Shown piece after piece: positions 4,675-32,517 of a stretch of 44,023 bases of DNA. The stretch spans positions 1 to 44,023 of IMG/VR virus record IMGVR_UViG_3300030620_000014. One strand, 5' to 3'. Source of the stretch: a virus. Its lineage: Duplodnaviria > Caudoviricetes. The translations under genes were made by a program, and so were the position numbers. The notes under the pieces were generated by a model, which was not told where the DNA came from, ran no database searches, and was given only the letters and a program-made list of their open reading frames with translations. Positions within the stretch are counted from its first letter, which is position 1; each line of letters begins with the position of its first letter.

Positions 4675-5033
4675 CGATCGCCGAGTTGCAGGAGAAGGTC
4701 GACACGCTCAACGGGCTGTTCATGCCCCGGCGGAAGAAGGACCCGCCGCACTTCGATCTCCGCACACGGGACCGGCGCACCATGCTGATCCGCTGGCGCA
4801 TGGCGCCGACCGCGGTGCGGGAGAACGTGACGGAGTTCCTGCCGGCCTCGGAACTCGGTGCCTTCCTCGACGCCTTCACGGCGGGGGTGGGCGTGGGCCG
4901 GGAGAAGGGTGTCCAGTCCGGGCTGGCCAAGGCCGCCCGGGCGCAGAGTCGAAAGCGTCACACCGCGGAGGAGGTGCGGGTGTACCTCCAGCAACCCGGG
5001 GTCATGGAGGTGGCGCGGAAGCTTCTGCGCTGA
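4671..5033 (+). CDS. Hypothetical protein
   Basis: ATGA-coupled start; last gene before the convergent hairpin. Confidence 0.65.
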   Translation: MTIAELQEKVDTLNGLFMPRRKKDPPHFDLRTRDRRTMLIRWRMAPTAVRENVTEFLPASELGAFLDAFTAGVGVGREKGVQSGLAKAARAQSRKRHTAEEVRVYLQQPGVMEVARKLLR

Positions 5034-5045
5034 TCCCGCAACGCA

Positions 5046-5082
5046 GAAAGGCCCCGTTGGCGACGTGCCAACGGGGCCTTTC
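5046..5082. terminator. Probable bidirectional intrinsic terminator between the convergent arms
   Basis: Perfect 16-bp stem GAAAGGCCCCGTTGGC/GCCAACGGGGCCTTTC with a 5-nt loop, lying between the stops at 5033 (+) and 5089 (-). Confidence 0.85.
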
Positions 5083-5088
5083 GCTTTC

Positions 5089-8000
5089 CTACCTGTCGCC
5101 CGCTCCGGGCAGCGGGGACTTCGTGAGAAGTCCCCGTTTCTTCGCCGCCTGAGTCAGGGTCGCCAGATCGTCGATCGCATCCTGCATCCCGGGCGTCAGC
5201 CCGCCCGGCCGCTGCTCCGTCAGGAACGCGGACTCGGGGATCTCCTCGCTGAGCAGGGCTTGCTCGGCGATGTCCTCCGTCGACCGCACGCCGAACCTCG
5301 CCGCCGCCTCGTCCCGGTTGAAGAACTGGCCGCCGGGCGTGGTGAAGCCCTGCTCGAGATCCGCGATCTTGTGTCCGTCCGCGACGGCTTCGTTCATGGC
5401 CTCGCCATGGAACCGCGCACGGTAGAGTGTCCCGTCCGGGGCAAGCACGGTCGCCTGCAAGTCGTCCGGCGAGGTAACCTTCATGGCGTCCTCCACCATG
5501 GTCGACTCGCCGTACATCGCACCCGAGGCCATGGCCGTCTCCTCGCGCGTCAGGAAGCGCCCGGTCTCCGTGTCGTAGAACCCGTCGACGATACCACTCT
5601 CTAAACCCCCACGCAGCATCCGCCGCTGGAGCGCGGGATCGGTGACCGCCATCGGGTCGTGGGCGATCCCCGTGGGGTACGCCTGCCCGCTTACTTCATC
5701 GAAGAACCCGGGGAGGAATCGCTGCCCTTTGTCCTGCAATCGGGCTACGTCGGCCGTCGTCTCCGGGGTCAACCCCTTCGTCGTGAGACCAGCCTCCCGG
5801 CCCAAGGTCCGGGCCGCCCGGGCCGCCGTCTTGCCCAAGTGGTTCCAGTCCAGCCGGCGGCCGCCCGGGATCATCCCGGCGAGGAGAAGCTCCTCCTCCC
5901 CGGTGGCGGTGGCTGCCGCCCCCGCCGCGGCCAGCGCGGTGAGTTGGAACAAGAACTGCTCCGTGGCACCCTTCTGTCCGGCCCGCTCGAACTTCTCCAT
6001 CCGCTGCACGATCGCGCGAACGTCCGCCTCGCGGATGAGCGCCGGGTCGAACTCCGGGCTGATGTGGTCCGGGACGAACTCCACCCGGCCCATACCGTAC
6101 AGATCGAGGATCTCGTCTGTCGCCTCGTCGCCTCCGCTCAGGAGGCTGGAGTAGCTCGGCATAGCTTCTATGCGTCGGCGGATGCCGCCCGTGATACCGC
6201 CCGGCTCCTTCGCGATCTCCTCGAGGGCCGCGCCGATCGTCTTGCGGTTCCGCACCGTACCGATCTCCTCGGAGAGCGCCTTGAACACGGTCCATTGCAT
6301 CGCCTGAACTTCCCGCGGCGTGACCGTGGTCCCTGTGATCTCGGACAACTGCTTCGCCGCGGCGCGAGTGCTTGCGTTCATGGCGAGCTTCCGCGCCTTG
6401 GACAGTTCCGGCAGGGCGCCCGCGCCACGGAGCATATGCGTGTCCTGCGTTATCCGCTGCGTGTTGCCCATGAGGTTCGCGTAGAACGGGTCTACCTTCG
6501 GCCCGGAGAGGATCGAAGGCTCCTTCCGTCCAGCCTTTGTGAGCTTGCGGTCCGGGTGGAGTAGGCTCGGGTCGCCCTTAGTCGTGAATCGGTCGAGGAA
6601 CTTCGGGGACATCAATTCTTTCTCCGAAGCCGTCAGCGACGTGATGGCGTTGTCCACCGCGTTCGGTACGGCCCCCTCGGGCTGCCCGAACGTCTCGAAG
6701 ATCCGCTTGATCTCGTCCGCGTCCGCCGGCCGTCCGGCCTTGTCCCACTCGCCCCACACCCGCAAGGCGGACCGGAGGTTGTTGTCCACCGGAGCATTGG
6801 CACTCGTGGCCGCGAGCAGCGCCGTGAAGCGCGGGGCATCGAAACCGAACATCTTCACGATCGAGTCGGCACTCGCGTCGTACCACCGCTGCGCCTGTGC
6901 TCCGAGGATCGCGATCGACGCCCCCTGCCGTGCGGACGTCGTGAGGGAGAAGCTCCTGAGCGCGTCCTCCTGCGACCGGGCCGGCATGGCGGCGAACGCC
7001 TCCGCCTCCGTCGGCGTGAGGGACGCCATGAACGCTGAGGCTCGAGCCTCCGTCCTCGCCGGCACCGTCTCGTCCAGCCGAGCGCGGAGCATGGCCTGAC
7101 CGATCTCGTCGTCCAGACGCACCGCCTCGAACTCCGGGTCTGCGAGGTTCAGGATCGAGTGCTCGCCTCGAGCCGTGCCGAACGCCCGCGCGTCGTCCTG
7201 AGAGTCGAACCCTCGGCCGACGTTGAGTTCATGTTTCCCGTGGGCGAAGTCCTCGTCCCCCTCCCTGATCCGCGTCCCGTCCTCCCGGGTGCGGTTGTTC
7301 CACGTCGCCACCGTGGCCCCCTCCTCCGAGAGGGCGTCGGCGTGCTCCGCCCGGAACCGGGCGATGTCCTCGGGGGTCGGCGGGCGATCGAGCAGCACCG
7401 GCTCGCCGGCCGCCACCGCCCACTTGTCCTGACCGACCATGTTCGCTCCGCTCTTGGCGTCGAACGTCGAACCTCCGAACTCTCCGTGGGCCTTGGCTAC
7501 CGTCTCGTCCATCCGGGTCGTCATCACTCGAGGAGGCGGCGTGACGTACTCCGGCCCGTTCGCCCACTCCTCCATCAGGAACACCTTCTGCTCCGCGAAG
7601 GGGCGATCACGCGGGGCGAGTCCCCGATGCGGTCCGAAGCTGAACCACGAGTTCTGCCCCCGGGTCTCCGTCAGCATGGCCGGGCGGGCCGCGTCCGAGA
7701 ACATGACGGAGTGCATCCGCGCGGCCGACTCCTCGCCGTGCGCGGCGAAGTTGTTCTGCTGCGCGAAATGCCCCCAATAATCGTGGTCCGCCCGGAGCAT
7801 GTTGTTCGCCTCCGCAGACAGGAGCGGGTGATGATCGGCCGTAGACGCGAACACCTTGAGGCGGCCGTTTTCCGTGATGTCTTGCATCATCTCCGCGGAC
7901 GTCTTGTACGGGTCGTCCTCGGTGAAGATGACCTTGATCCCCGCCCCGCCGTCGAGGCGACTGCGGGTCAGCCACTCGAACTGATCCCGTACTTCCTGCT

Positions 8001-9399
8001 CGAGCGCCTCGTAGGCCGCGATCACCTCCGGGTTGGTCGGTTGGCTGACCGCCTCGTCGTACATCTGCGCAATCCGGGTATGGTACGCCTCGTCGACGTC
8101 GCCCGCCTTGAGAGGTGCCTGTGGGCTGTGGTCCAGCCCGATCGACTCCGCGTATCGCCGCGCCACGTCCATCGCGTCGGCCGCCCTATCGATGTTCTTC
8201 GGAAGGAGCGGATTCGGCCGGGTCTCGACGTCCGAGAGGACTCGACGCGCCTCCGGCGTATCGAACACGACAGCACGGGTGGCGAGATCGCCGGTGTTGC
8301 CCGACTCGTAGTATCCGAGGTACCCCGCCTCGGCGAGAGCATCCTCCACGCGATTGTAGTTCGTCCCGTCCAGATTCCCAAGCTCGTGACGCTTCCGGGC
8401 AATGATGCCGTCCGGGTCGTCCGCGGCCGAGTACATCCGGTCGAGGGGAATGTCCACCTCGTGAACCGCCTCGGCCGAGCGGATGCCGGCGAACTGCTCC
8501 GGCTCGCCCGTGCCGGCGATGTAGAAGTTCGCCCGGTCTCGAGCGCCGGACGGATCATTCCGAAGTCGCCGGGCCTCCTCGCCCCGGACGCCAGTCTTGG
8601 CCCACATGCTCGAGGACGGGCCGAACCGGCGGAGGCGGATCGCCTCCCCGCCGCCTTGCCGAAGCAGACGGAACGGCACGGCCGCGGCCGTGAACGCCGG
8701 TCCCATGGCGATCTCGATTGCCCCTTCGAACGCCACGCGCTGCCCCTCGGGCAACGCCGCGAAGAATGAAAGCTCCGGGTCCGTCGCGATGGCCGCGGCC
8801 AGCGGCGCGGATGCCACGCCTTCGGCCGTCCGCGTCCCGAGCTTCCCGAGGCGGAGCAGCTTGGCCGCCGCGGCGCCGGCCCGCGCCGTTCCGACGAACG
8901 GGACGAGCATGGTCGCCAACTCCCCGAGAGCCTGCCCGGCGATGCCCGGGACCGGCTCCTGCTCCGGGCCGATCGCCCCGGCCACCGCGTCACGATCCCG
9001 GCGGATACCCTCTGCTACCTCGTCGGCACCGAACAGATCGAACAGCCCGGAGGTGACGGACGTCACGCCCCGGAGAGCGCCAGAGGCGACCCCGCGGCCG
9101 AGATCCTCGGCGCTCTGGCCGAGGAGCCCGATCCGCTCCCGGATGGTCATCCCGCCGGCGTCACGGTCGAGTAGGCCCCGGGGGCGGTTCGGGAGTGCCG
9201 GCTCCGTCTGGCCGGCAGCCGTCAGGAGTCCGCGCACTTCCATGTCGGACGCCGAGCCTCCGACGTGCATGGTAACGTACGTCTGCGCCAGCCGGGCGAT
9301 CTCCGCCGGCGTGGCCATGGCCCCTGTGCGCTCGCGGACGAACCGCTCGAACTCGGGGCTCATGCCGTGCTGTTCGATGAGCCTGAGAAACTCGTTCAT
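5089..9399 (-). CDS. Large internal virion/ejection protein with several enzyme-like domains (polyvalent-type)
   Basis: 1436 aa, last late gene. Ala/Gly-rich N-terminus typical of podovirus ejection proteins, followed by several globular domains (see findings). Confidence 0.75.
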   Translation of the reverse strand: MNEFLRLIEQHGMSPEFERFVRERTGAMATPAEIARLAQTYVTMHVGGSASDMEVRGLLTAAGQTEPALPNRPRGLLDRDAGGMTIRERIGLLGQSAEDLGRGVASGALRGVTSVTSGLFDLFGADEVAEGIRRDRDAVAGAIGPEQEPVPGIAGQALGELATMLVPFVGTARAGAAAAKLLRLGKLGTRTAEGVASAPLAAAIATDPELSFFAALPEGQRVAFEGAIEIAMGPAFTAAAVPFRLLRQGGGEAIRLRRFGPSSSMWAKTGVRGEEARRLRNDPSGARDRANFYIAGTGEPEQFAGIRSAEAVHEVDIPLDRMYSAADDPDGIIARKRHELGNLDGTNYNRVEDALAEAGYLGYYESGNTGDLATRAVVFDTPEARRVLSDVETRPNPLLPKNIDRAADAMDVARRYAESIGLDHSPQAPLKAGDVDEAYHTRIAQMYDEAVSQPTNPEVIAAYEALEQEVRDQFEWLTRSRLDGGAGIKVIFTEDDPYKTSAEMMQDITENGRLKVFASTADHHPLLSAEANNMLRADHDYWGHFAQQNNFAAHGEESAARMHSVMFSDAARPAMLTETRGQNSWFSFGPHRGLAPRDRPFAEQKVFLMEEWANGPEYVTPPPRVMTTRMDETVAKAHGEFGGSTFDAKSGANMVGQDKWAVAAGEPVLLDRPPTPEDIARFRAEHADALSEEGATVATWNNRTREDGTRIREGDEDFAHGKHELNVGRGFDSQDDARAFGTARGEHSILNLADPEFEAVRLDDEIGQAMLRARLDETVPARTEARASAFMASLTPTEAEAFAAMPARSQEDALRSFSLTTSARQGASIAILGAQAQRWYDASADSIVKMFGFDAPRFTALLAATSANAPVDNNLRSALRVWGEWDKAGRPADADEIKRIFETFGQPEGAVPNAVDNAITSLTASEKELMSPKFLDRFTTKGDPSLLHPDRKLTKAGRKEPSILSGPKVDPFYANLMGNTQRITQDTHMLRGAGALPELSKARKLAMNASTRAAAKQLSEITGTTVTPREVQAMQWTVFKALSEEIGTVRNRKTIGAALEEIAKEPGGITGGIRRRIEAMPSYSSLLSGGDEATDEILDLYGMGRVEFVPDHISPEFDPALIREADVRAIVQRMEKFERAGQKGATEQFLFQLTALAAAGAAATATGEEELLLAGMIPGGRRLDWNHLGKTAARAARTLGREAGLTTKGLTPETTADVARLQDKGQRFLPGFFDEVSGQAYPTGIAHDPMAVTDPALQRRMLRGGLESGIVDGFYDTETGRFLTREETAMASGAMYGESTMVEDAMKVTSPDDLQATVLAPDGTLYRARFHGEAMNEAVADGHKIADLEQGFTTPGGQFFNRDEAAARFGVRSTEDIAEQALLSEEIPESAFLTEQRPGGLTPGMQDAIDDLATLTQAAKKRGLLTKSPLPGAGDR

Positions 9400-10920
9400 C
9401 TAGCGTCTCCCTCCGGGCCGGACGTCCAGTCGGATTGTACCGACCCGCCAGTTCTCGTTCACCTCGACGAGCTTGATACGGACCATGCGCGCCTCGTGCA
9501 GCACACTCGTCCGCTGCGACAGCGTGATGACTCCGCTCGACGTCTCGGCGCCATCCGGCTCGAACTTGAACAGAAGCTCGGCCGTGACGTCGCCTTCGGT
9601 CTTGTCGTCCGGGACGATGTACGAGATGAACGCCACGCGATCCCCGTCTCCGATCTCCACCGGACCGGACTCGGCCGAGGGGGTGTATTCCCCGGACACC
9701 GGCTTCGGGTAGTCGTATGCGTCTTCGTGCGTCCACAGTTGCCCCTGCGCGTCCGCCATCAGCGGAAGCCGCTGCGGCCCGCGGTCCCACACGCTCGTCC
9801 GTTCGATCGACCCGATGTACCAGATGTCCAGCTTGTAGTTGTACACGACGTAACGGTCGTTCTCGTTCGAACCGGCCGAGGGGTAGAACCACCACACCTC
9901 GCCGAACTCGGCGATCGAGCCGGCCGCTACTTTCGACTGCTGAATCCAGTTGAAGTCCGAGAACACGTAGTCCGACACCTCGGACGGGAGATCCCGCGTG
10001 TACCCGTCGAACGAGTGGAACCCGCGCTTGGACATCCAGAAGAAGCGACTGTCGACACCTATCATTGAATGCCGACTGATCGCCCCGCAGTTCTGGCCAA
10101 CCTGCACCACCTGAAAGATGAGATCCCCGCCGACGTACCGGAAGGACCACAGATCCTTGTCGGTCCACACGAGGGTCTGCCCGCGGGCTCGGCGCCCGGC
10201 AAGGCACTCCCCGGCCCCGGAGAGCGGGTGGTCCCCGGCCTCATTCGTCTCCGTGGGCGTCCAGTCCGTCCGGTCCTCGGAGTCCGACCATTGCACGAGC
10301 CGGCGGTCGCCGTCCGCGCCGAGGGCCATGATATGCCCCTCCTCGGTCACGACCACCGCATTCGCGCTTGGCGCGTTCGAGACGGCCGTCAGGTCGTTCC
10401 CGGTGTCCAAATCCCACTCGTAGATCGTCGCGTCCGGGAACGCCACGGCGATGAGAAGCTCGCCGTAGTTGTCGAACTGCCAAGACCCCGCCTCGACGAT
10501 CTCATGCGTGATGTCCGAGACCACGCCCCCGTAGGGGCCTTCGCCGTAGATACCCTCGCCGTAGGCGCCGCCGTCCGTGACCGTGGCGTCCTCCGTCCCG
10601 GCCGTGAAACCGGAGGGGGTGATATCGGTGAGCACGCCGAGGTGGAAGGCATAGGCCGCCTCGAAGGTCCCGAACGCGAGATACACCGTGCCGTCGTCGC
10701 CGCGCCATCCGTACATCCCCCGGATCGGCTCGTCGACGTCGACCTGCTCGTCCGTGTCCGCGTCGATCACCGCACGCCACCCACCGACCGGCTGGAGCGC
10801 CACCTTGTCGTTCGCGGACGCGAACCAGCGGGCGAGTTGCGTGTGAAACCAGCGTCCCTTCGACTGGTACTCTGTCCCGTTGCGAAACACGCCCGGCGGG
10901 ATGTTGATCGGTACGAGCAT
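9400..10920 (-). CDS. Tail nozzle / packaged-DNA stabilization protein (P22 gp10-like beta-propeller)
   Basis: 506 aa; PPGVFRNGTEYQSKGRW start, VQWSDSED..WTPT.TNEAG, EVWWFYPS, YVVYNY; position in the tail module. Confidence 0.75.
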   Translation of the reverse strand: MLVPINIPPGVFRNGTEYQSKGRWFHTQLARWFASANDKVALQPVGGWRAVIDADTDEQVDVDEPIRGMYGWRGDDGTVYLAFGTFEAAYAFHLGVLTDITPSGFTAGTEDATVTDGGAYGEGIYGEGPYGGVVSDITHEIVEAGSWQFDNYGELLIAVAFPDATIYEWDLDTGNDLTAVSNAPSANAVVVTEEGHIMALGADGDRRLVQWSDSEDRTDWTPTETNEAGDHPLSGAGECLAGRRARGQTLVWTDKDLWSFRYVGGDLIFQVVQVGQNCGAISRHSMIGVDSRFFWMSKRGFHSFDGYTRDLPSEVSDYVFSDFNWIQQSKVAAGSIAEFGEVWWFYPSAGSNENDRYVVYNYKLDIWYIGSIERTSVWDRGPQRLPLMADAQGQLWTHEDAYDYPKPVSGEYTPSAESGPVEIGDGDRVAFISYIVPDDKTEGDVTAELLFKFEPDGAETSSGVITLSQRTSVLHEARMVRIKLVEVNENWRVGTIRLDVRPGGRR

Positions 10921-12471
10921 CTATCGTCTCCCTCCACGTCGGGTCTCGCCCGTCTCCGGGTCGTATTCGATTCCAAGGCGCACGTCCGAACTGAGCAGCC
11001 CGCCGCCGGCCCGCCCCGCCTGCGTGGTCGCCGCGGTGCGTCCTCGAGAGCGGGCATGTGAGAACAGTTTCGCGATCTCCCCGTCACGGATCATCCGCTC
11101 GATACGCCGGGCGCCCTCCTCCCCCTCCTCGAGGAGGATCTCGCCGACCATCTCGGCGATCTGCTGACGCCGCCGCTGCTGGTCCATGAGAAGGTTTCGG
11201 GCCGTGGCCCCGAGCCCCTCGATCTTCGAGGGAAGGTCCGGGCGGAACGTCGGCACGGCCGCCTCGATCGCGCTGGCCAGTCGTTCGTACCCCTTCTGCT
11301 GCGTGATGAGTTGTGCGTACTGCCGGCGGGCCTCCCGGAAGCCGGGGACCGCAACGTCGAGCGCGTTGTCGAGCCGCCCGAGGGCCTGCACGACTTCTTC
11401 CCGCTGTACCGACGTGATGGACCGGCTGTTGCGCCGCTTCTGGAGCCGCTCGCGGATGCTCTGCAACTGACGGAAGCTCAGATCCCGGACCTTGCTCGGG
11501 TCCCGGTTGATGAGACCCTTCGCCGCGTCGACGACCGCCGGGTCGGACGTGACGAGGTTCCGCAGCGCCGGATCGTCCACATTGGCGAACGACTGCTCGA
11601 GCGGCTCGAAGATCGCCCGGCGGGCTGCGCCGAACGTCGCCGGGTCGCCCCGGCGAATGACTCGCTGCACCGGGCCGCCGGACCGCCGGAGCCCCTGCCC
11701 CTGACGGACCACGCTTGGCAGGATGCGCTCCAGCACCGGGTCGACGTCCGCCACGACGCCGCCCTCGGGGAGCGTGCGGACCTTCTGTCCGATCTGCTCT
11801 CGAGGGATACCCGTAGCGTCGACCATCTCTCGAAGCGCCTGATTCGCGACTGACTGATTCGGCCGGAGCGGGGACAGGAGCTTCGACGCCACACCGCCGC
11901 CCCCGGAGAGGAGCCCGCCGGTAAAGCCGCCGGCCGCCCCGCCGCCGAGCGCCCCGGAAAACCTGCCCCCGGGCTCCGCCGTGCCGGCGCCCATGGCCGC
12001 GCCTTCGGCTGCTCCCACGGCCGCTCCAGCGCCCGCGGTACGTGCTACGCCCCCGGCGCCCCGGAGAGCGCGGAAGGCCCGGGCCGCTCCGGCCCCGGGA
12101 ACCGCCACCGCCCCGGCGATCTCGCCGGCCAGCGCCGCCCCGGGGTTGTCCGCCCGGATCTGATCCATCCTCGCGCGGCTCGCCTCGGCGTCTCCGCCGA
12201 ACATACCGACAAGCTCGTCCGCGGTGCCGAAGGTCGCCCCCTCTGCCATGGCCCGCAGGAAGTCGGAGATGGGGGTCTTGTTGTTCACGGACTCCGCCAA
12301 CCGGCGGTCCGCCTCAGCCTCCGGGTCGACCGCGACCGTCAGGGACATCATCCCTGCGAACTGACCGTCCGTCACCCCCCGGATATATTCGTTGATGTCG
12401 TTGTAGCTCGCCCCACGCTCCAGAGCGTCCCGGGCGTCGGCGAGAAGCTTCCTGAGTTCCGCCTCGTTCAT
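10921..12471 (-). CDS. Internal virion (ejection) protein
   Basis: GATFGTADEL motif, Gly/Ala-rich membrane-spanning-like stretch and helical C-terminus; position in the tail module. Confidence 0.65.
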   Translation of the reverse strand: MNEAELRKLLADARDALERGASYNDINEYIRGVTDGQFAGMMSLTVAVDPEAEADRRLAESVNNKTPISDFLRAMAEGATFGTADELVGMFGGDAEASRARMDQIRADNPGAALAGEIAGAVAVPGAGAARAFRALRGAGGVARTAGAGAAVGAAEGAAMGAGTAEPGGRFSGALGGGAAGGFTGGLLSGGGGVASKLLSPLRPNQSVANQALREMVDATGIPREQIGQKVRTLPEGGVVADVDPVLERILPSVVRQGQGLRRSGGPVQRVIRRGDPATFGAARRAIFEPLEQSFANVDDPALRNLVTSDPAVVDAAKGLINRDPSKVRDLSFRQLQSIRERLQKRRNSRSITSVQREEVVQALGRLDNALDVAVPGFREARRQYAQLITQQKGYERLASAIEAAVPTFRPDLPSKIEGLGATARNLLMDQQRRRQQIAEMVGEILLEEGEEGARRIERMIRDGEIAKLFSHARSRGRTAATTQAGRAGGGLLSSDVRLGIEYDPETGETRRGGRR

Positions 12472-13563
12472 CTATCGCCTCCCGGGGACCAAGTGTTCCA
12501 TCTGATTACCGGACTCGCCGGCGCCGCCCCCTCGCACCCTGTCGAAGGGATCGCGGCCCTGCTCGATATCCTGCACGACCGACTCGAGACGCCGGATCTT
12601 TGAACGTACCGTCTCGGGCGACTCGCCCGGCCGCGGCACGGCGAACGTCTCCAGCCGCTTGACTTCCATCTCGGAAGCCTGCGCGCCCGAACGCGAACGC
12701 ACGATGAGCGACATAATGTTGTTCGACGCCGCAAAGAACTGCTGGAACTCGGGACTGGTGAGCCCGCGGGTCCAGTCCGAACCCCCGGCCATCTGCTCGA
12801 GCACCCCGAACGGCTTGTCGCCGCGGGCGCTGAGAATGCGCCTCATCTCGTCCGTGTCCCGGCGAAGCTGATTCGCGAGGGCCGTGTCCACCTCGTCTCC
12901 CGACACGGTATCTGCGAGACGACGCGGGCCGATCTGCCGGCCCGAAGTCGGGTCGGCGAAGTACTGGTAGACGAGCCCGGTCTCCGGGTCCAACTCCTTC
13001 ACGAGGGTTCCCCTCTCCGGGTCGTCCGGGAGCGGCTGCGCGCCCGGAAGCGGCACACCGTCGAGCGTCGTGTACATACGGTTCCGCTTGCTCCACGTCG
13101 CCAGCACCTTCTGACCCGTGGGCGTGAGAACCTCTTTCGGCGCGTCGAACTCCTCCGGCTCGGGGGCCTTCGGCGGGCCAAGTTCCCGAATCGTCCGGCC
13201 GTCCGTCTTGTTGATGAGGGCCGTCGACCCGTCCGCCCGGGTGACGACCTGAGTCTCGAAGTCGGGGACCTCCGGCAGCAGCGCCTCCGTCTGTTCTGCG
13301 CGCGTGGCTTGGCCCGCGGCTCCTGCGAGACCGATGGTCTCCAAGAGACCCCCGGAGCCCGGTCGCGATGAAGCGACGAGCCCGGCGAGACCGGCGTTGA
13401 TGAGCGCCGACCGGCGGATTCTGTCGTTCTCCTCGGGAGAAAGCCGAGGGTCATAGAGCCCTGTGAAAATGCGGTCCAGAGGGCCGTCGCTGACGACGTT
13501 CTCTGGCGTCGTGGCCGCCGGGCCGCTCAGGAGGCCGCCCGAATACCCAATACCTTCCGGCAT
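12472..13563 (-). CDS. Internal virion (ejection) protein
   Basis: RSRSGAQASEMEVKRLETFAVPRPGESPETVRSK resembles the C-terminal motif of phage DNA-transfer proteins. Confidence 0.65.
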   Translation of the reverse strand: MPEGIGYSGGLLSGPAATTPENVVSDGPLDRIFTGLYDPRLSPEENDRIRRSALINAGLAGLVASSRPGSGGLLETIGLAGAAGQATRAEQTEALLPEVPDFETQVVTRADGSTALINKTDGRTIRELGPPKAPEPEEFDAPKEVLTPTGQKVLATWSKRNRMYTTLDGVPLPGAQPLPDDPERGTLVKELDPETGLVYQYFADPTSGRQIGPRRLADTVSGDEVDTALANQLRRDTDEMRRILSARGDKPFGVLEQMAGGSDWTRGLTSPEFQQFFAASNNIMSLIVRSRSGAQASEMEVKRLETFAVPRPGESPETVRSKIRRLESVVQDIEQGRDPFDRVRGGGAGESGNQMEHLVPGRR

Positions 13564-13572
13564 GTGTGCCTC

Positions 13573-14394
13573 CTAGAACTGCGGTGCGAAAAGGGGAGGA
13601 GCCTGTACCTGATCCGGGTGCGGCAGCCCGTAGGGGCTCGCCGGCAGCCGGACATCCGGTACCGGGATATTGAGAGAGCCCGGGCTACGAAGTCCTTGCC
13701 CGAGAAGTCCCCCGCTGACTCCCCCGCCGAGAACCCGGCTCAATGTGCCCCCGTGCTGTCCGGTCGTGACCGTGCCGGCGCCGCCCGGGCCGAGACCCGT
13801 CGCCCCGGCGGAGAGCGCCCCGCTGATGCGATCCACGTTGAACCCGGCCCGGCCGAGCGCGAACCGATTCGCCTGCTCGAAACCGGCGGAGCGGAGCCCG
13901 GCGATCGTCGACGCCCGCTGCCGATCGATCTGCGACTCGCGCTGTGCCTGTAGCACCGCGCCGCGGGACCCGCGGGCCGAGCCGGCCATCGCCGCCTCTT
14001 GCCGCGCCGACAGCCCTGCACGGTCACGGGCCACGTCGAAGTCCGCGTTGGCGGCGTCAATGACTTCCTGCTGGTACGGGTCCATGAACGCCCGGAAGCT
14101 CTCCGGGTCGAACGTCACGTCCTCGCCGGTCATCCCGCCCCCGAGGAGGCCGCTGAACCCCTGCGCCCCCGGGCGGAGGAACTGCTCGAGATACCGCTGA
14201 GTGGCCGGGTCGAGTTGCGTCGTCTGTTTCTGCCCCCCGCCTCCGAACAGCCCGCCGAGCGCCCCGGCCCCAATGAGGCCGACAGTCAGAGGGTCAATGG
14301 CCAAGACCACCCCCGTGTCCGCGGGCTGGAGGTAGACGTAGGCCGTGGCCGCCATGGCCACGATCCCGAGGACCAGTCTCGTGATGAATCGCAT
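13573..14394 (-). CDS. DNA pilot/ejection protein (P22 gp7-like)
   Basis: GGAG RBS before ATG14394; GAGALGGLFGGGG, FMDPYQQEVID and a Gly-rich C-terminus. Confidence 0.65.
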   Translation of the reverse strand: MRFITRLVLGIVAMAATAYVYLQPADTGVVLAIDPLTVGLIGAGALGGLFGGGGQKQTTQLDPATQRYLEQFLRPGAQGFSGLLGGGMTGEDVTFDPESFRAFMDPYQQEVIDAANADFDVARDRAGLSARQEAAMAGSARGSRGAVLQAQRESQIDRQRASTIAGLRSAGFEQANRFALGRAGFNVDRISGALSAGATGLGPGGAGTVTTGQHGGTLSRVLGGGVSGGLLGQGLRSPGSLNIPVPDVRLPASPYGLPHPDQVQAPPLFAPQF

Positions 14395-14415
14395 CGTGCG
14401 TTCTCTCCCCACAGG

Positions 14416-14841
14416 CTAGTTGACGCTCCGACTCACCTCGAACCACGAGGTTCCGTCGAATATGAGCGTGATCGTGTCGTCCGCCGAGCCCGTGAAGTCG
14501 GAGCCGCCGGACAGGTGCATGTTCGCACCGTCTTTGAGGGTGAAGTTCCCTGTCGTGAAAAGTATGGTGATCGTCTGACCCTCGACTCCATCGTCGAAGG
14601 CGGTCACGTCTGTGGCGTTCGCGTAGGACTCGGAGAACAGCGTCCGCCCCGCGACTGACGGGGTGGCGTCGTCGTCCGTGAACTCCACGACTTCTCCGCC
14701 GATCGCCTCCTCCGCCGCGAGGCTCGCCACCTCAATGAGCAACCGCTCCAAGTCGTCCCGGAACACCGACTCATTCTGAGGGTCGTATCGCGGGGACGGC
14801 AGCGGGAACGTCACATGGATTCTGCGTCGCCGCCGGGCCAT
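14416..14841 (-). CDS. Virion/tail-associated hypothetical protein
   Basis: LPSPRYDPQNE..FR..LER N-terminus and a beta-rich C-terminus (DTITLIFDGTSWFEVSR). Confidence 0.6.
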   Translation of the reverse strand: MARRRRRIHVTFPLPSPRYDPQNESVFRDDLERLLIEVASLAAEEAIGGEVVEFTDDDATPSVAGRTLFSESYANATDVTAFDDGVEGQTITILFTTGNFTLKDGANMHLSGGSDFTGSADDTITLIFDGTSWFEVSRSVN

Positions 14842-15375
14842 CTAGATAACCCTCCGCGTCCACCCGAGCAGGAACCGATTCACGAGATCCCGGCGGAGGG
14901 AGCGGTAGTACCGAAGCTGGAGCAGGTTGAACCTGTCCCGCCATGCCACGATATGCAGCGCCCCCATCCCCCCGAGGGTGTTCAGCACGGATAGCGTGTT
15001 GAAACCTATGATCCCGTCCTCGACCAGCCTGTCGGGAATCCCGGCTACCTCGAGAATGTCGTTCGCGGCCTCCTGTGCTGTCCGTACCGCCACCCCGCCG
15101 TTCTGATGTGCAGGGTCGGCGTTGATCGTGAACTCGAAAATCTCGTCCGCCACGGACTGATACCGTAGCTCCCCGAGCCGCCTTGGGCTCCAGTAACGCC
15201 GGTCGTACACCTCCATGGCCTGCTCTCGAGTCAGGTTCGCGATGTCGAGGTCCGGGTTTGCCCGCTGCGAAATACCCCACTTGGTCGTCCCGCCGGGGTC
15301 GCCCGGCACCGTATGTACGACGCCACCACCCTCCAACTCCATAGCGAAGTCGAACGCCGCGCCAAGGTCAGCCAT
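14842..15375 (-). CDS. Endolysin, glycoside hydrolase family 108 (TtsA-like)
   Basis: EGG..H..PGDPGGTTKWGIS catalytic motif, DGIIGFNTL peptidoglycan-binding motif and C-terminal FLLGWTRRV. Confidence 0.88.
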   Translation of the reverse strand: MADLGAAFDFAMELEGGGVVHTVPGDPGGTTKWGISQRANPDLDIANLTREQAMEVYDRRYWSPRRLGELRYQSVADEIFEFTINADPAHQNGGVAVRTAQEAANDILEVAGIPDRLVEDGIIGFNTLSVLNTLGGMGALHIVAWRDRFNLLQLRYYRSLRRDLVNRFLLGWTRRVI

Positions 15376-15544
15376 TATCGGACACCTTCCTCGCGATGAG
15401 CATGTTCGCTCCGTGATAGGCCACATTCACCGTGCTGACGATAGTCGTCCATTCCGCAGTCAGCTTGCCCATCAGGGCGAGCACGAAGGACAGGACGAGC
15501 GAGCCAGCCGCCATGATGAACTTCCGCGATCTGTATCGCTCCAT
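15368..15544 (-). CDS. Putative holin
   Basis: 58 aa, SRKF followed by two hydrophobic segments; overlaps the lysin start. Confidence 0.6.
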   Translation of the reverse strand: MERYRSRKFIMAAGSLVLSFVLALMGKLTAEWTTIVSTVNVAYHGANMLIARKVSDNG

Positions 15545-15548
15545 GACC

Positions 15549-15806
15549 CTACCCCCGCTCGAAAAGGAACTTTGTGATGACTCCGCCAAGAGCCCCGGCG
15601 ATCGCCGCGAGGACTGCGATCCCGCCGGCGAGCTTGCCTTTGAACTGCTCCAGCTTGGCGACTCGGTTGCTGATGATGCGCGAGTAGACTTTCTGGCCCT
15701 CCTGCTCCGACTTGATCCCGTCGAGCATCCCCTCGATCCGGCCGAGGGACCGCTGAACCTCCCTCTGCGTCGACTGGATTTCCTCCAGCGCGTGTTGGTA
15801 GTTCAT
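15549..15806 (-). CDS. Coiled-coil protein with C-terminal TM helix (holin/antiholin- or XhlA-like)
   Basis: RVAKLEQFKGKLAGGIAVLAAIAGALGGV; adjacent to the lysis genes. Confidence 0.55.
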   Translation of the reverse strand: MNYQHALEEIQSTQREVQRSLGRIEGMLDGIKSEQEGQKVYSRIISNRVAKLEQFKGKLAGGIAVLAAIAGALGGVITKFLFERG

Positions 15807-15809
15807 GGT

Positions 15810-16508
15810 CTACTCTCCCGGCGCGATGCGAACGCCCTCGAAGAACGAGCCGACGCCGGATGTGACACTCTCGGAGCCGCTGCCCCCCGGGTCGATCTGA
15901 ATAACCCACACCTCGATCTCGTCTCCGTCCTCGAGGTCGACGAGGGTCTGCGCCTGCACGGTGACGTCCCCGGATGCCGAGGACACGCCTTTGGTCGTTG
16001 ACGGCGTGCGTCCTGACGCCACCGCCAACCCGTTCACCCGAATCTCGACATACCACGAGTTTGAGTCATCCGCGCCCCCGTGGAAATCGCCCGTGATCGA
16101 GGCGTGCAGCATCCAGAGCCCGCCACCGTCCGCGGGGACCGTCGCCGTGCCGGAGGCATGAATGTCCCCTTCGTCGAACTCCTCGACGTCCCACACCACC
16201 TTGGTCGCCGTGCCCTGCGGAATCGCCTGCCCCGTGCCGCGACGCGCCTTGAAGTACAGGGCGGTACTACCGCCGGCGTCCTCCACGGTCGTGACTCGAT
16301 CGTCCAGCGCGTCGACTTCCGTCTCCAGCGTATTGACCTGCTCCTGCAACTCCCCGATAACGCCGTCGATCCCCATAGGGTCTTCCTCGTCGGACGTCGT
16401 ACCGATATTGCCGAAGATGAGATTTAGCAGGGTGCCCCATGACCCGATGTTTCCACCGATGTCAGGCAGCGCCCACTTGTAGTTTGTGGTCGGGTCCTGT
16501 ACCGCCAT
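15810..16508 (-). CDS. Short tail fibre with C1q/TNF-like head
   Basis: Anchor motif TTNYKWALPDIGG..SWGTLLN, a coiled coil, then YFKARR..Q.IP...TKVVWDVEEFD...GLWMLHAS...LEDGDEIEV. Confidence 0.7.
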   Translation of the reverse strand: MAVQDPTTNYKWALPDIGGNIGSWGTLLNLIFGNIGTTSDEEDPMGIDGVIGELQEQVNTLETEVDALDDRVTTVEDAGGSTALYFKARRGTGQAIPQGTATKVVWDVEEFDEGDIHASGTATVPADGGGLWMLHASITGDFHGGADDSNSWYVEIRVNGLAVASGRTPSTTKGVSSASGDVTVQAQTLVDLEDGDEIEVWVIQIDPGGSGSESVTSGVGSFFEGVRIAPGE

Positions 16509-16517
16509 GAGGTTCTC

Positions 16518-18650
16518 CTAGCTGATCGCGTATTTGTCCAAGAGGAACGCCGCGAGAGTATCCCGCTCGTCGTCGTCAAGGTGGTGGTCCCACGCTGCGT
16601 GCAGGGTCCACTCGCCCTCCACCTCGTCGGCGCCTGCCCGGTGCATGATGCTCCCCCGATTCGGCGTGCCCGCAAGGTCTCCACCGCCCGAATGGGCCGC
16701 GGAGTTCACAGGTGCGGTCATGTCGTCGATGTACGTACGCATGGTCGTGCCGTCGTAGGTGCAGAGCACCGCGTGCGCGTCCCCGTCGTACACCCGGCCG
16801 TCGTTCGAAGAGAGGACGGTGTTGTTCGGCCCGTTGTCGACCCGGAACTCGATATCCGCGTTGTCGCCGCCGACCGAATCGTTGAAGATGTCCACGATGA
16901 CCGTCCCGCTCGGCGAGAGCGAGGCGTGGTAACTGAAAAACGCGATCTGCGACGACGCCGCGATGGACGGCAGCACGAGGAACAGGATCGACAGGTTCTC
17001 GAGCTTCGGAATCGCGTCGAGCGAGTACTGCCCGCCATCGCTCTGTCCGGCCCGGAATACCGGCTGGCCGTTGAAGCTCGCGTCGGAGTCAACATCCAAC
17101 TCGGCCACACTACCCACGTCCGCCGGCGCGTCTCGCTCCGAAGGCGACCAGTCCGTGAGCGTGGTGATGTTCGTCTCGTCAGCCACACCGTCAACCTCGT
17201 TGTCGAGCCGCGCCTCGAACCACCACAGGAGGCCCGCGAGCAGCCCGGTCGGGATGAGTTCCGTCGCCTTGGACGGCAGTCGCGCAATCTCGAAGTACGA
17301 CGCGAAAGCACCGGCTACGACGTAGGAATCTGTGTCGTTGCTGGCGGTCGGCCCCTCCGTGGCCAGCACGTTCACCTCGAAATAGTCGTCGAGCGTGACG
17401 GCCGCAAGCGTCTGTACGATGACGGTCTGCGTCTCTACGGGGTCCGTCTTCCGATGGCCCTCGTTCATTCCGGGAACGCTGGCGCTGGCGATAGCGGAGC
17501 CGTTCTTGAGCAGACGTACCGTGTACTTGTAGCTGTCGTCCGCGCCGAGCACCCCCTCGATCCACGTCGGCAGTCGCAGCACCGCCCGGACCAGATGGAG
17601 CCCGTCGTCGGGTGCATCTGGATCGATCACCGACTTCGTGAGCCGCGTAGATGCGTCCAACGTGAACCAGCCGTTGCGGTCCAGCGATTCCGTGTCCCAC
17701 TCCACGAGCGTCGTCGTGTTCCACGGCAGGACGAAGTTCGTCGACGCCCGATACACCCTCGCGTACCGGGGGCGGTTGAACAGGGCCTCGATCGCCTCCG
17801 TCCGTTCACTCACGCTATCGACCTGGGCGTCGAGCGTATCAATCTCCGTCTCGAGAAGTCCGATGATCGTGTCGATCGACTCGAACAGGTCGTCGGCCGC
17901 CGCGCCATATGCCTCGTTCAGCGGCTCGCCCCAAATGTCCTCGGAGGACCCCTGTGTTGGGACGCGCCAGCCGTAGTAGTGCGTCACCTCCCGGATCTCT
18001 GCCGTGTTCGGTGCGGACCCCGCCTGATTGACCGTCACCGTGAACCCGTTGGCCGAGTCCTCGGTGAAGCTCGTGTCCTCGAGATCCTGCGTCGTGAAGT
18101 CGACGTCCAGTTGCACGGTGCCGTCGTCGATAACGACACCGTACACCCGACCCTGCCAGAGATTCGCGGTGCCACCCTCCGTCGCCCCGATGTTGATCGC
18201 CGCCGACGAGGAAAAGACACTCGTCGTGCCACCAAGACTGACTTGGCCGCCCAACTGCTGCTGTACGTCGTTCTCGTCGTAGTAGAAGAAGTCGACGGTC
18301 CCGGGGTCGACGTCGAGGAACGCCTCGACCTTGATCCGCTCGAACGTGCCTGCTTCGACAGGGATCGCGACCGTGGACTGCACGATAGTCTCCGCGGCGC
18401 CGTTCGTCGACCACCCCAACTCGAGTACCATTTCGCCATCGGCAACGTTGGCGCCGAGGTAGTACGACCGCTGATCCCCGGATTCCGTCCACTTCGACAG
18501 AAACACAATGAGGCCGCTCGGCGGGATCTCATTGACCCCGACGTCGGCCGTCAGCGTGATATCGCCCGTGATGTCGAGCGCGGCGTTGTCCGGCACCGAG
18601 GCGTAGTCGCCGGAGACGCCGGGCAGCCACAATGCCTGTGGGACTGCCAT
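16518..18650 (-). CDS. Tail fibre / receptor-binding protein with LamG-like and C1q-like domains
   Basis: 710 aa: N-terminal LamG-like domain (YASVPDNAALDITGDIT), internal anchor motif, coiled coil, C1q-like domain and a C-terminal LamG-like domain. Confidence 0.7.
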   Translation of the reverse strand: MAVPQALWLPGVSGDYASVPDNAALDITGDITLTADVGVNEIPPSGLIVFLSKWTESGDQRSYYLGANVADGEMVLELGWSTNGAAETIVQSTVAIPVEAGTFERIKVEAFLDVDPGTVDFFYYDENDVQQQLGGQVSLGGTTSVFSSSAAINIGATEGGTANLWQGRVYGVVIDDGTVQLDVDFTTQDLEDTSFTEDSANGFTVTVNQAGSAPNTAEIREVTHYYGWRVPTQGSSEDIWGEPLNEAYGAAADDLFESIDTIIGLLETEIDTLDAQVDSVSERTEAIEALFNRPRYARVYRASTNFVLPWNTTTLVEWDTESLDRNGWFTLDASTRLTKSVIDPDAPDDGLHLVRAVLRLPTWIEGVLGADDSYKYTVRLLKNGSAIASASVPGMNEGHRKTDPVETQTVIVQTLAAVTLDDYFEVNVLATEGPTASNDTDSYVVAGAFASYFEIARLPSKATELIPTGLLAGLLWWFEARLDNEVDGVADETNITTLTDWSPSERDAPADVGSVAELDVDSDASFNGQPVFRAGQSDGGQYSLDAIPKLENLSILFLVLPSIAASSQIAFFSYHASLSPSGTVIVDIFNDSVGGDNADIEFRVDNGPNNTVLSSNDGRVYDGDAHAVLCTYDGTTMRTYIDDMTAPVNSAAHSGGGDLAGTPNRGSIMHRAGADEVEGEWTLHAAWDHHLDDDERDTLAAFLLDKYAIS

Positions 18651-19295
18651 CTAGAACACCCTCCCCGGGACGCGAGACAGCGTGCCGCCGTACAGCGCGT
18701 CCTGATTGTCCTCGTAGATCATGTCGGCTGCGCGATCGTACTGCTGAACCGCGTTCGCGAGCCGCTCGTCCTCTTTCAAGAACTCCGCCAGCACGCTCAT
18801 GCACGCATAGCGGTACAGATGCGGGTACTGCGTGAGCCAGCGGTTCGTGGGAGCCGACACGGACAGATGCGTCAGCTTCGCCCAATACGCGAGGTTGATC
18901 GTGAAATCCGCGTCCGGTACCGGCGCCCATTTGAGGCTGTAGTCCGCGGTCCCCGTTCCCACGATCGCCACGCCCACGGGCGCACCCGTAGCCCCGAACG
19001 TGGCGAACAGATGTCCAAGCTCGTGATGGGGGACGACGTTGATCGGCCCGTAATAGGTCGACCCTACGTGCGTCGCGTCGTTCAACTCCGCGAAGTCGCT
19101 CGGAAGCGACGTAGTTTCGTCGCCGCTCACGACCGCGAAGGCCCCGAGGTCCACGAACAGCCGCAGCCGGCGGTCCGACCGCATCTTCGCCTCGGCCTCG
19201 CGGATGATCGCATCGATGTCCGCGGTCAGGTCGGTTCGGCGGACGAACGTGGCCAGCCATGTCTGGAGTGCGCTATACGTCGTCGGCAGCGGCAT
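18651..19295 (-). CDS. Head-tail adaptor (tail tubular protein A-like)
   Basis: TYSALQTWLA..RRTDLT..I..AEA...LR..LPSDF...PVPD...TNRWLTQYPHLYRY is typical of podovirus adaptors. Confidence 0.8.
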   Translation of the reverse strand: MPLPTTYSALQTWLATFVRRTDLTADIDAIIREAEAKMRSDRRLRLFVDLGAFAVVSGDETTSLPSDFAELNDATHVGSTYYGPINVVPHHELGHLFATFGATGAPVGVAIVGTGTADYSLKWAPVPDADFTINLAYWAKLTHLSVSAPTNRWLTQYPHLYRYACMSVLAEFLKEDERLANAVQQYDRAADMIYEDNQDALYGGTLSRVPGRVF

Positions 19296-20064
19296 TCTCT
19301 TGAGCCTCCCGGGCGTCTCTCAGCCCTTCTTCGTAATCGAGGACATGTCCGAGCGCATACTCGAACGTCCCGGTGTGCCGGACCCCCTTCGAGACGTCGT
19401 GGTCGATCACGGCCGGGAAGCCAAGCTCCCGTACCAACCGACAGAAGTAGACGTCCTCGCCGATGTGCTTCCCGAGTTCGTCGTCATAGGCGAACCGGAA
19501 CCACGGGCGCGGACGTTTCTCGTCCAGCGCCTTGAGTACGTTCGTGTGCATGAGCACGCAGCCGAACCCGAACGCCTCGACGTCCTCCATCCCGGAGGTC
19601 GTGTCGTCCGTCACAAGCCGCTCCCCGTCCGCGCGCTCCCGATCCGGTACCTTCTTCCACGCCACGTAGCGCGGAGGCATCCCCCGGGTCGAGTAGTTCA
19701 CACCCAACAGCGGGTAGACATGCCCCTCGAGCGGGTGAAGCTCCTCGGCACGCATGAGCATCTGGATGAGGATCTCTTTAGGGAACCTCATATCCGCGTC
19801 CAGCCACAGCGCGTAGTCCGCCCCGTACTCCAACGCGGCGTCCGCGAGGGACTGCCGAGCGCGGTGGATGAGGGTGTCGGTCGCGGTGTGGATCGACAGC
19901 TTCGAGATCGACCCCGGGGCCATGAAACTTCCCGAGGTGAGGATACAGAGCCTCGCCAGATCGTATGCGAACGTCGAATGGATCATGTCGTGACTCGGGA
20001 TGAGAATCGCAACGTGGATTCCCGGTACGTCATCCTCACGCACTACATCGTGACTGACCTTCAT
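19273..20064 (-). CDS. Glycosyltransferase (GT-A / GT2-like)
   Basis: IHRARQSL, DxD motif WLDADMRFP, GFGCVLM, GEDVYFCR and D..VRHTG. Confidence 0.8.
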   Translation of the reverse strand: MKVSHDVVREDDVPGIHVAILIPSHDMIHSTFAYDLARLCILTSGSFMAPGSISKLSIHTATDTLIHRARQSLADAALEYGADYALWLDADMRFPKEILIQMLMRAEELHPLEGHVYPLLGVNYSTRGMPPRYVAWKKVPDRERADGERLVTDDTTSGMEDVEAFGFGCVLMHTNVLKALDEKRPRPWFRFAYDDELGKHIGEDVYFCRLVRELGFPAVIDHDVSKGVRHTGTFEYALGHVLDYEEGLRDAREAQENAAADDV

Positions 20065-20469: not shown

Positions 20470-21014
20470 CCGACGTTGAGCGAGGGCACCTTCACGGCCA
20501 GCCGACCGTCATCCATCACCCCCGCGGCGCCCACGGTGATCTCGGGGAGCCACCATGGGCGCTTGCCCGGGCGATCCTCGACGACCGCGAGCAGAGAGTC
20601 CCGCGCCACGGTCATCGTGTTCAGGGCGTCCTGTAGTCGATCGTTCGACTGGAGGAGGAGCCGATTCGCCACAAGCAGCGAGTCCGTGTCCTCCCGCAAC
20701 CGCATAATGATGACGTCGCGCGCCGTGTCCGCTGCCGTCTCCGGGGCGGGTAGGGCTGCGATGCGTCTATCCGTCTCTGAGAGGCGGGGAACGACCACCT
20801 CCACCACCGCTACGGCCTGTGAACGCAGCGAATCGGCTTCGGCTTGTAGGTCGTTCACCCGCTCCTGTAGAGACGAGTTCAGGGTCTCCGCGGCCTGCGC
20901 CCGGGTCTCCCACTCGGAAACGCGGTCGTCACGGCAGCGCCCATAGACAAAGAGGACGCCGAGCACCACAGCGGCGAGGACAGCGACTTCACGCAGCCTC
21001 GAAGTGATACCCAT
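20451..21014 (-). CDS. Membrane-anchored coiled-coil protein (spanin-like)
   Basis: N-terminal TM helix, long heptad region and a C-terminal amphipathic beta-hairpin. Confidence 0.55.
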   Translation of the reverse strand: MGITSRLREVAVLAAVVLGVLFVYGRCRDDRVSEWETRAQAAETLNSSLQERVNDLQAEADSLRSQAVAVVEVVVPRLSETDRRIAALPAPETAADTARDVIIMRLREDTDSLLVANRLLLQSNDRLQDALNTMTVARDSLLAVVEDRPGKRPWWLPEITVGAAGVMDDGRLAVKVPSLNVGWRIGL

Positions 21015-21558
21015 AGTCCTCGATCTCCTCTCGGAACCGCTCGGCCACGTACAGGCGGAGCGCGTCGTCGTAGTACACAGAGTAGTGCCGGCCGCCCCGG
21101 CCCGGGGAAATGTTCACCCTCGGGATCGCGGTAGCTCGGCCGAGCATACGATTGAAGTCCTCCTGCAAGGACTCGTACCGGAGAACGGCGTCCGCGAAGC
21201 GTGTGTACTGGCTCCACAGCTTGTCGTCGTCCGGGTAGTACATCGGGTAGCCGCTCGCGATGCGATCGATATACGCCTCGTCGAACTGGACCCCGGTCTT
21301 GTTCTGGTAGGTGAACCATGAGACAAACGTGTCCCAATGGTTCCGCACCGTGGTGAATACAGTCCAGCCCTCGCCCGGATGCTCCGTGAGGGTCTGGTGG
21401 TGACTGTGCGTCTTCGTCCCGAGCACCTTGACCGGGTGCGAGTTCGGGAGATGCTTCGCCAGCTTGAATCCACGCTCGCGAAGCACCGACGCCGTGGCCT
21501 TCGAGGCCGTCTTAGGGGCGGCGAGGTAGACCATGCGCCGCTCATCAGAGATGTACAT
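20989..21558 (-). CDS. Sulfotransferase (Sulfotransfer_2-like)
   Basis: 5'-PSB loop YLAAPKTAS, 3'-PB motif FTTVRNHWDTFVSWF, LRYESLQEDF and C-terminal HYSVYYD...VAERFREEIEDYGYHF. Confidence 0.82.
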   Translation of the reverse strand: MYISDERRMVYLAAPKTASKATASVLRERGFKLAKHLPNSHPVKVLGTKTHSHHQTLTEHPGEGWTVFTTVRNHWDTFVSWFTYQNKTGVQFDEAYIDRIASGYPMYYPDDDKLWSQYTRFADAVLRYESLQEDFNRMLGRATAIPRVNISPGRGGRHYSVYYDDALRLYVAERFREEIEDYGYHFEAA

Positions 21559-24371: not shown

Positions 24372-24617
24372 TTACCCGGTTGTCTCCTCGTAGTCCTGCG
24401 ATGCCTCGAACACATCCACCTCCGCGGCATAGCGTTCGAGCACTTCCCACACGGCCTTGAGCCCGCGCATCTGTCCGTGGTAGGACTCGCGATGCTCCAA
24501 TAGGTCGGCGTGCTCCCACCCCTCGACGGTATCCTCTCGAGCTTCTTCGAAGGCCTCGAGCAGTACATCGTCCGCGAGCAGTCGCTTCGCCTGCCGTCCT
24601 CGTTCTACGTGATCCAC
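24372..24617 (-). CDS. Hypothetical protein between portal and scaffold
   Basis: RGRQAKRLL.D..L.EAF...W...RE pattern and its position in the head module. Confidence 0.65.
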   Translation of the reverse strand: MDHVERGRQAKRLLADDVLLEAFEEAREDTVEGWEHADLLEHRESYHGQMRGLKAVWEVLERYAAEVDVFEASQDYEETTG

Positions 24618-24620
24618 AGG

Positions 24621-28423: not shown

Positions 28424-28424
28424 C

Positions 28425-28643: not shown

Positions 28644-28656
28644 AGGCAAGGCTCCC

Positions 28657-28809: not shown

Positions 28810-28824
28810 GTCGTCCTCTCTGGC

Positions 28825-30716: not shown

Positions 30717-30720
30717 GACA

Positions 30721-31083: not shown

Positions 31084-31102
31084 GGCCTCAACTACTCCTC
31101 GT

Positions 31103-32469: not shown

Positions 32470-32517
32470 GTTACGTGTGCGCGCAGGTTCCTCTCACGAG
32501 ACGGAGACGAGACCACC

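Follow-up and report, generated by a model that had tools for sequence, protein, structure and literature searches.

Programmed read-through of a stop codon lying in frame between two open frames is exemplified by Q-beta A1, murine leukaemia virus (MuLV) gag-pol and tobacco mosaic virus (TMV). A wider use of the amber codon, TAG, is found in the code-15 phages (crAss-like, Lak, Garnet and Topaz), which are low in guanine-cytosine (GC) content, carry TAG within genes, particularly late and lysis genes, and are depleted of it as a stop; about 40% of TAG-recoded phages possess an amber suppressor transfer RNA (tRNA), according to the preprint describing them (bioRxiv 10.1101/2021.08.26.457843). 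Neighbouring genes may also be linked by termination-reinitiation, for which two papers give stop-start distances of -8 to +6 nucleotides (nt), up to +10 (PMC10666635), a Shine-Dalgarno (SD) site within the upstream gene and an enrichment for subunits of one complex (PMC6728339, PMC10666635). Here we analyse a further arrangement, found in the 44,023-nt genome of a Caudoviricetes phage (IMG/VR record IMGVR_UViG_3300030620_000014; this whole stretch is hereafter the window). Seven consecutive late genes on its minus strand (15375 to 5089) share one reading frame and are separated only by TAG codons and two short spacers. We consider it likely that these genes give seven separately made proteins and that their TAGs are ordinary stops, the shared frame probably being a by-product of packing TAG-ended genes against ATG-started ones.

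Between a TGA at 15429 and a TGA at 5004, the minus-strand frame of position 15375 holds seven stops and nothing else, all of them TAG (first bases at 14844, 14418, 13575, 12474, 10923, 9402 and 5091). The original prediction, made from the letters of the window, was exact on this point, and the successive gaps of 0, 21, 9, 0, 0 and 0 nt confirm the four gapless TAGATG junctions and two stop-free spacers that it described. It had also assigned each gene a ribosome binding site of its own, and an SD-like duplex is indeed present at every downstream start (-7.8 to -13.7 kcal/mol overall, the gapless junctions spanning -10.6 to -13.7, computed against an assumed anti-SD tail). At all four gapless junctions the SD of the downstream gene lies within the last codons of the upstream one. 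The third open reading frame (ORF) of the run, the pilot gene, has an alternative in-frame GTG start at 14412 (gap 3); we prefer the ATG at 14394 because the SD of the GTG is more distant and because the relative L161 supports the ATG. Read-through to the last TAG would yield 3,428 amino acids (aa), close to the roughly 3,400 foreseen, with another 28 codons to the next TGA.

The run, entirely on the minus strand, opens with a 177-aa endolysin of the glycosyl hydrolase 108 (GH108) family (14842-15375; PF05838, E=7.6e-16; phrog_315), whose TAG abuts the next start. In L161 the homologous gene (38% identity) is solitary, lies on the opposite, early strand and ends in TAA; the lysin probably forms no part of the virion. 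The 141-aa protein that follows (14416-14841; PF25692, E=1e-9) ends in TAG ahead of the 21-nt spacer (3 nt with the GTG start at 14412); its N-terminus matches a 280-aa gene of L002 and, in L255, the gene after the nozzle, and it is probably of the tail needle or plug type. Next is a Gly/Ala-rich putative pilot or ejection protein of 273 aa (13573-14394), which found no family match in PHROG or Pfam scans and whose TAG, followed by the 9-nt spacer, overlaps the SD of the next gene. Two putative ejection proteins come after it, one of 363 aa (12472-13563) and one, a putative internal virion protein, of 516 aa (10921-12471; phrog_5880, phrog_342, E=1e-5), and then the 506-aa tail nozzle protein (9400-10920; profile match to PDB 8zkm/8zkk 'nozzle', E=2e-21; phrog_3287), each of the three ending in TAGATG. 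A putative large ejection protein of 1436 aa (5089-9399; phrog_3170, phrog_3842), also TAG-ended, closes the late block; its orthologs have 1472 aa (TGA-ended) and 942 aa (TAA-ended). Among the gene labels proposed earlier, nozzle and lysin are upheld by profiles, while pilot and ejection rest on position, composition and weak PHROG matches. An AlphaFold model of the nozzle built from a four-row alignment was unusable (predicted local distance difference test score, pLDDT, of 36).

The late block (minus strand, 31609-5089) comprises terminase, SU10-type portal, scaffold, SU10-type capsid, adaptor, fibres, holin, GH108 lysin, nozzle and putative ejection proteins. With the exception of holin and lysin these are the elements that it shares with SU10-type podophages (PF17236, PF23899, PF24175), from which it differs in that the window's clade has the nozzle between putative ejection genes and not ahead of the needle gene. 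In that clade (L001/L161, L002, L162 and the window) the nozzle gene is flanked by putative ejection genes and set apart from the needle-type gene, which in other relatives comes directly after the nozzle.

The three closest genomes (L001/L161, L002/L087 and L162) keep the same gene order, with nozzles 51-55% identical to that of the window, and allowed 11 orthologous junctions to be compared, two of the upstream genes being assigned by position. Just one of the 11 is both TAG-ended and in frame. Between the pilot and 363-aa genes the relatives read TAA -1 twice (in L161 this is the TAA stop and -1 overlap of the 273-aa ortholog). The next junction, to the 516-aa gene, is TAA +1 in L161, TAA +9 in L002 and TAG +1 in the remaining case, and the one leading to the nozzle is TGA -1, TAG +8 and TAG +5. 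From the nozzle to the large protein we found TGA -4 in L161, TAG -1 in L002, TAG 0 in L162 and TAA -1 in one further relative. At this site the window and L162 have TAG and then ATG, L002 is shorter by one base with a -1 GTG overlap, and L161 is shorter by four with a -4 overlap; the nozzle end PGGRR is identical ahead of all these shifted junctions, the phase being toggled by insertions or deletions of 1-4 bases. The adaptor gene, outside the run, behaves similarly: TAG 0 in the window becomes TAG -1, TAG +1, TAA -1 or TAA 0 in relatives with the upstream C-terminus unchanged. For the two lysin-side junctions the relatives contain no orthologous neighbour pair. The conserved C-terminal GGRR of the nozzle encodes the SD of the next gene; a role as polyprotein cleavage motif was considered and ruled out because of this coding duty and because GGRR is kept ahead of TGA and TAA stops too.

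More distant sequences extend the comparison. Among 112 de-duplicated relatives the nozzle gene ends in TGA in 88, in TAA in 18 and in TAG in 6, and the gene after it is in frame at one of 71 close junctions from these 112 loci. Over all junctions in relatives, approximate in-frame counts are 68/185 after TAG, 164/528 after TAA and 44/449 after TGA, and 12 of 32 TAG junctions are in frame in seven close loci. Tabulating phases against a one-third null had been suggested as a check on a frame-joined operon; the TAG count of 68/185, together with the TGA or TAA stops and shifted phases of homologous junctions, goes against it. Scanning for a nozzle end followed by TAG returned six stretches: three chance matches, two sequences already known and one further nozzle, L591, in which TAG forms a -1 overlap with GTG. 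Portal and exonuclease scans gave distant relatives only and an adaptor scan none. Free-standing late stops in the five nearest TAG-rich relatives are TAG in 29 cases, TAA in 17 and TGA in 5. Since stop and phase vary in this way among relatives, ordinary separate genes are most likely, and not a read-through polyprotein. What recurs is the abutment of genes with an SD in the upstream end, rather than the frame.

Packing offers a simple account of the frame. TAG, unlike TGA and TAA, cannot overlap an ATG by one or four bases, so the tightest junction of a TAG-ended with an ATG-started gene has gap 0 and is in frame by construction, which accounts for four of the six junctions. A -1 overlap with TAG requires a GTG start, as used in relatives: ATG starts 25 of the 29 late genes of the window, whereas close relatives have many GTG starts and -1 TAG/GTG overlaps. 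As for the other two junctions, +9 is the spacing most often seen after TAG among relatives (25/185) and +21 is at chance level. At such junctions a ribosome would terminate at UAG through release factor 1 (RF1) and reinitiate at the adjacent AUG, which would link the output of the virion genes as the -1 and -4 overlaps would in relatives. Less firmly, TAG may be favoured because strongly expressed late genes would shun the leakier UGA, with TAG rather than TAA perhaps being the tighter stop at hand in a genome of 66% GC; TAG is described as less read through than TGA in PMC8789281. Selection for tight termination at high GC, as we infer it, would be the opposite of a leaky-amber design.

Translational coupling at the junctions of the run is likely, judging from their sequence features. 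Five of the six have stop and start within -8 to +10 nt, the sixth lying at +21 (+3 with GTG 14412); the SD sits in the last codons of the upstream gene at the gapless junctions; and the products may build one complex, the virion, for which the nozzle is supported by profiles and the ejection roles are putative, with the lysin probably outside it. The usual termination-reinitiation junctions are ATGA (-4) and TGATG, TAATG or TAGTG (-1), whereas here gap-0 TAGATG occurs five times in a single operon with the frame kept. Coupling was one of two explanations put forward originally, and geometry and relatives fit it, although the mechanism is a known one and its operation here is read from sequence.

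Separate genes without any coupling would differ from this reading in having each start used de novo from its own strong SD, gap 0 reflecting mere genome compaction. We think this unlikely. The SD duplexes of the gapless junctions (-10.6 to -13.7 kcal/mol) could allow independent initiation, and one gapless Sulfolobus stop-start pair is reported as uncoupled in PMC6728339, a case that also counts against our preferred interpretation; the same paper, however, reports coupling for 13 of 14 overlapping pairs tested, and the SD-bearing GGRR and a -4 or -1 overlap recur at the nozzle end in distant relatives.

The run belongs to a genome with a marked stop bias. In a curated list of 53 genes (29 late, 24 early) TAG is the main stop (30/53). 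Late-strand genes end in TAG in 23 of 29 cases, in TGA in four (all in overlaps) and in TAA in two, and early-strand genes in TAG in 7 and TGA in 16 of 24 (late vs early TAG, Fisher P=3e-4); free-standing TGA occurs in none of 23 late genes vs 5 of 12 early ones (P=0.002). One of the four late genes with TGA in an overlap encodes the terminase large subunit, and four relatives carry TAG at that stop. Two relatives, L029 and L088, have a mirror bias, with TAA ending 19/19 and 14/17 called late genes. Further in-frame TAG chains, absent from the original prediction, lie on the late strand, and their phases are not kept in relatives. A second chain (15549-19295, minus strand) takes in the adaptor (19295-18651), joined by TAGATG to a fibre gene (18650-16518), then at +9 another fibre gene (16508-15810) and at +3 the holin (15806-15549). 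Others, also on the minus strand, comprise the major capsid protein, a 161-aa protein at +96 and a sulfotransferase at +27 (23139-20989), and the portal with an 81-aa protein at +3 (24372-26900).

How exceptional the run is depends on the reference chosen. Within -30 to +60 nt the late strand has 19 TAG junctions, 12 of them in frame (P=0.007-0.018; 0.007 vs one-third), and with gap-0 junctions excluded 7 of 14 are, no significant excess (P=0.15). The chance of a run of at least six is 0.07 when the window's own junctions are permuted and 0.18 at its own in-frame rate. The window is thus an outlier mainly in TAG use, and, given that use, the run is uncommon yet not extraordinary genome-wide. 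Several observations nevertheless weigh against a by-product of packing. Simulations with the window's TAG share and in-frame rates of 1/3 to 0.37 give P of 0.006-0.010 for a run of at least six; the longest TAG chain among 182 de-duplicated related loci has two junctions; and the window's TAG share exceeds that of all 117 related loci with at least eight called genes (maximum 0.50, median 0.12), although L082, merged in de-duplication, has TAG at 11 of 18. Gap 0 is over-represented, at 5 of 9 tight late TAG junctions vs 12 of 51 in relatives (P=0.04). The null rates come from a simple gene caller of our own that misplaced some starts (the L002 nozzle junction, called +35, is truly -1), and the cause of the TAG bias is itself inferred. 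The relatives read as DNA reach at most 55% (nozzle) and 76% (capsid) identity, so there may have been recent, lineage-specific selection for the frame.

The bias also underlies two proposals that give the stops themselves a regulatory task. One holds that stops are split by life stage, UGA early and UAG late, with late junctions kept in frame, and that a late shift in release factors, perhaps involving the tRNA-Leu-like RNA described below or an unassigned early protein, would aid late termination and allow low-level nozzle-ejection or lysin-virion fusions; we judge it improbable. The other, which we find slightly more doubtful, restricts itself to a partition of stop codons, late genes relying on RF1-only termination while release factor 2 (RF2) and UGA decoding are impaired or limiting late, so that the in-frame run would be a side effect. 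The free-standing TGA counts (0/23 late vs 5/12 early), the TAG counts (23/29 vs 7/24) and a TAG share above that of all 117 related loci agree with such a partition, but four late genes, including the terminase large subunit, are TGA-ended in overlaps, and no release-factor-like gene was found. A takeover directed at RF2 is weakened by this terminase gene, which ends in TGA where four relatives carry TAG.

The machinery that recoding or read-through would call upon was also sought. ARAGORN with default settings found no tRNA gene in the window and, at a low threshold with introns, mostly noise; release factor PF00472 had no match in the window, scans of 43 ORFs with PHROGs and 20 + 28 with Pfam revealed no tRNA synthetase, and no suppressor was present among seven tRNAs in 17 related loci. 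The 90 nt downstream of each of the six TAGs are no more stably folded than shuffles (z of -0.60, -1.12, -0.97, -0.81, +0.38 and -0.95; pseudoknots excluded). Late genes with detected homologs have no internal TAG, their whole ORFs aligning and ending at or near the same residues, and early core genes match PHROG profiles with no interruption at a TAG. The window resembles the code-15 phages in its late and lysis-gene TAGs, and differs from them in having TAG only at homologous gene ends and as the main stop, a GC content of 66% and no suppressor. It has in common with programmed read-through the in-frame stop between two open frames, yet it shows neither a conserved phase nor a 3' stimulator, and its downstream ORFs each possess an SD and begin at a position that relatives conserve.

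These results bear chiefly on the amber-jointed operon of the original prediction, in which conditional TAG read-through would give fusions reaching from the lysin to the ejection proteins, at most about 3,400 aa long, an arrangement for which our literature searches, spanning main texts and few subscription papers, returned no description. The frame is open under TAG read-through, the late TAG junctions keep it in 12 of 19 cases (P=0.007-0.018), L162 has the same TAGATG after its nozzle, and in Escherichia coli a UAG is prone to suppression when A comes next. On the other side, phase and stop identity are not conserved (1/11), no suppressor tRNA, release factor or 3' structure accompanies the six TAGs (z +0.4 to -1.1), and none of 32 longer nozzle homologs (887-2530 aa), most of which owe their length to internal insertions, matched one of the window's neighbouring genes in a search of a weak type. 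General amber read-through would also extend the capsid, portal and adaptor by 392, 82 and 1,091 codons, and the SU10 nozzle and ejection proteins sit in different virion compartments (PMC9509320). With orthologs ended by TGA or TAA and shifted in phase, and with machinery, stimulator and fused homolog all missing from the searches, we regard the amber-jointed operon as the least credible explanation. Many of the nozzle homologs P0124-P0151 have 890-1,190 aa, with large internal insertions and both termini kept.

A tRNA-Leu-like RNA (42983-43094, plus strand; Rfam tRNA, 44.2 bits, E=7.6e-8) lies between the genes for a single-stranded DNA-binding protein and DNA polymerase. Its leucine-type acceptor, D and T arms are intact, the anticodon loop has 5 nt and the extra arm 45-47 nt, and default ARAGORN missed it. 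Removal of a 34-nt insert gives a UAG (leucine) anticodon without U33. A CUA triplet in the long-arm loop led us to consider an amber suppressor, which was rejected as no splice or fold yields a canonical anticodon loop with U33. Similar stretches are common: a pattern scan of the viral collection turned up 121, in 14 of its 64 parts, or an estimated 590 or so in IMG/VR. Of 98 distinct sequences, 90 pair at six or seven acceptor positions (18 do so on average in shuffles, 27 at most) and A73 is present in 73, but a canonical anticodon arm following the D arm is absent from all 98, as is a CUA hairpin; the class combines covarying acceptor stems with a hypervariable, anticodon-less core. It is comparable to the T5 RNA1/RNA2, annotated as 'tRNA-like stable RNA with unknown functions'. 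From these features the RNA appears to be an anticodon-less tRNA mimic of a widespread phage class and not a suppressor.

The window is a whole phage genome on one contig of 44 kb (CheckV completeness 100%; GC 65.8%), whose opening bases recur at 43886. Its DNA is present in two soil-metagenome runs from a single sample, with no RNA run listed as containing it, and contigs of the probable source sample match 4800-20000 without one differing letter, a comparison within the same sample and hence not independent. Replication genes form the early block on the plus strand (32518-5033), which converges with the late block at a strong hairpin (5046-5082; z=-5.6 vs shuffles), probably a bidirectional terminator. 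Where the blocks diverge, about 800 nt of apparently non-coding, lower-GC sequence (31660-32450) hold several copies of a repeat of about 12 nt in both orientations and short G-rich tandem repeats, making this a candidate origin, packaging or promoter region. A sigma-70 scan gave no signal exceeding shuffles. The hexamer CCTGTG is enriched (37 vs 19.9 +/- 3.9 expected), for instance at 14415, 20084, 23187, 24620, 28604, 28646 and 30524 on the minus strand and 42107 on the plus strand, and recurs right after stops or at GTG starts in the clade (window, L082, L084, L087 and L162); it is possibly a start context or processing signal. Glycosyltransferase-like and sulfotransferase-like genes (19273-20064 and 20989-21558, minus strand) lie within the head-tail block, are kept in close relatives and possibly serve virion modification, and a pentapeptide-repeat protein is encoded in the early region (34373-34972, plus strand).

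The nearest named isolate is Sinorhizobium phage phiM5, with 44% capsid identity, and no close relative in culture was found. Nearer capsid proteins (P0002-P0004, 75-78% identity) come from contigs of 15-47 kb. A capsid search of genome contigs for the host gave matches of just 32-54%, scattered across many phyla, and the Atlas returned virus clusters only. Among 401 genomes in the phylum of a Gemmatimonadales bin (G001) there were four distant capsid matches, and spacer-like matches to 25000-44023, the part searched, were unconvincing and mostly pentapeptide repeats. In 20 ribosomal-protein regions of that phylum TAG is the stop of 143 out of 520 called genes, and 4 of the 97 TAG junctions have gap 0. 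This pattern differs from that of the phage; the phylum is a guess, hence this is no test of the host.

The in-frame arrangement is real and striking, and most likely incidental to separate, tightly packed genes. It means that a TAG-preferring genome can, with no recoding, yield a 10-kb frame that opens under code 15, a pitfall for screens inferring recoding from ORF length, and its natural gap-0 junctions provide test material for termination-reinitiation. Should the improbable combination of stop-codon partition and fusions prove true, it would represent a new route of phage gene timing through release-factor choice, with no codon reassignment, and would be relevant to the unsettled matter of the anomalous behaviour of TAG usage in bacteria.

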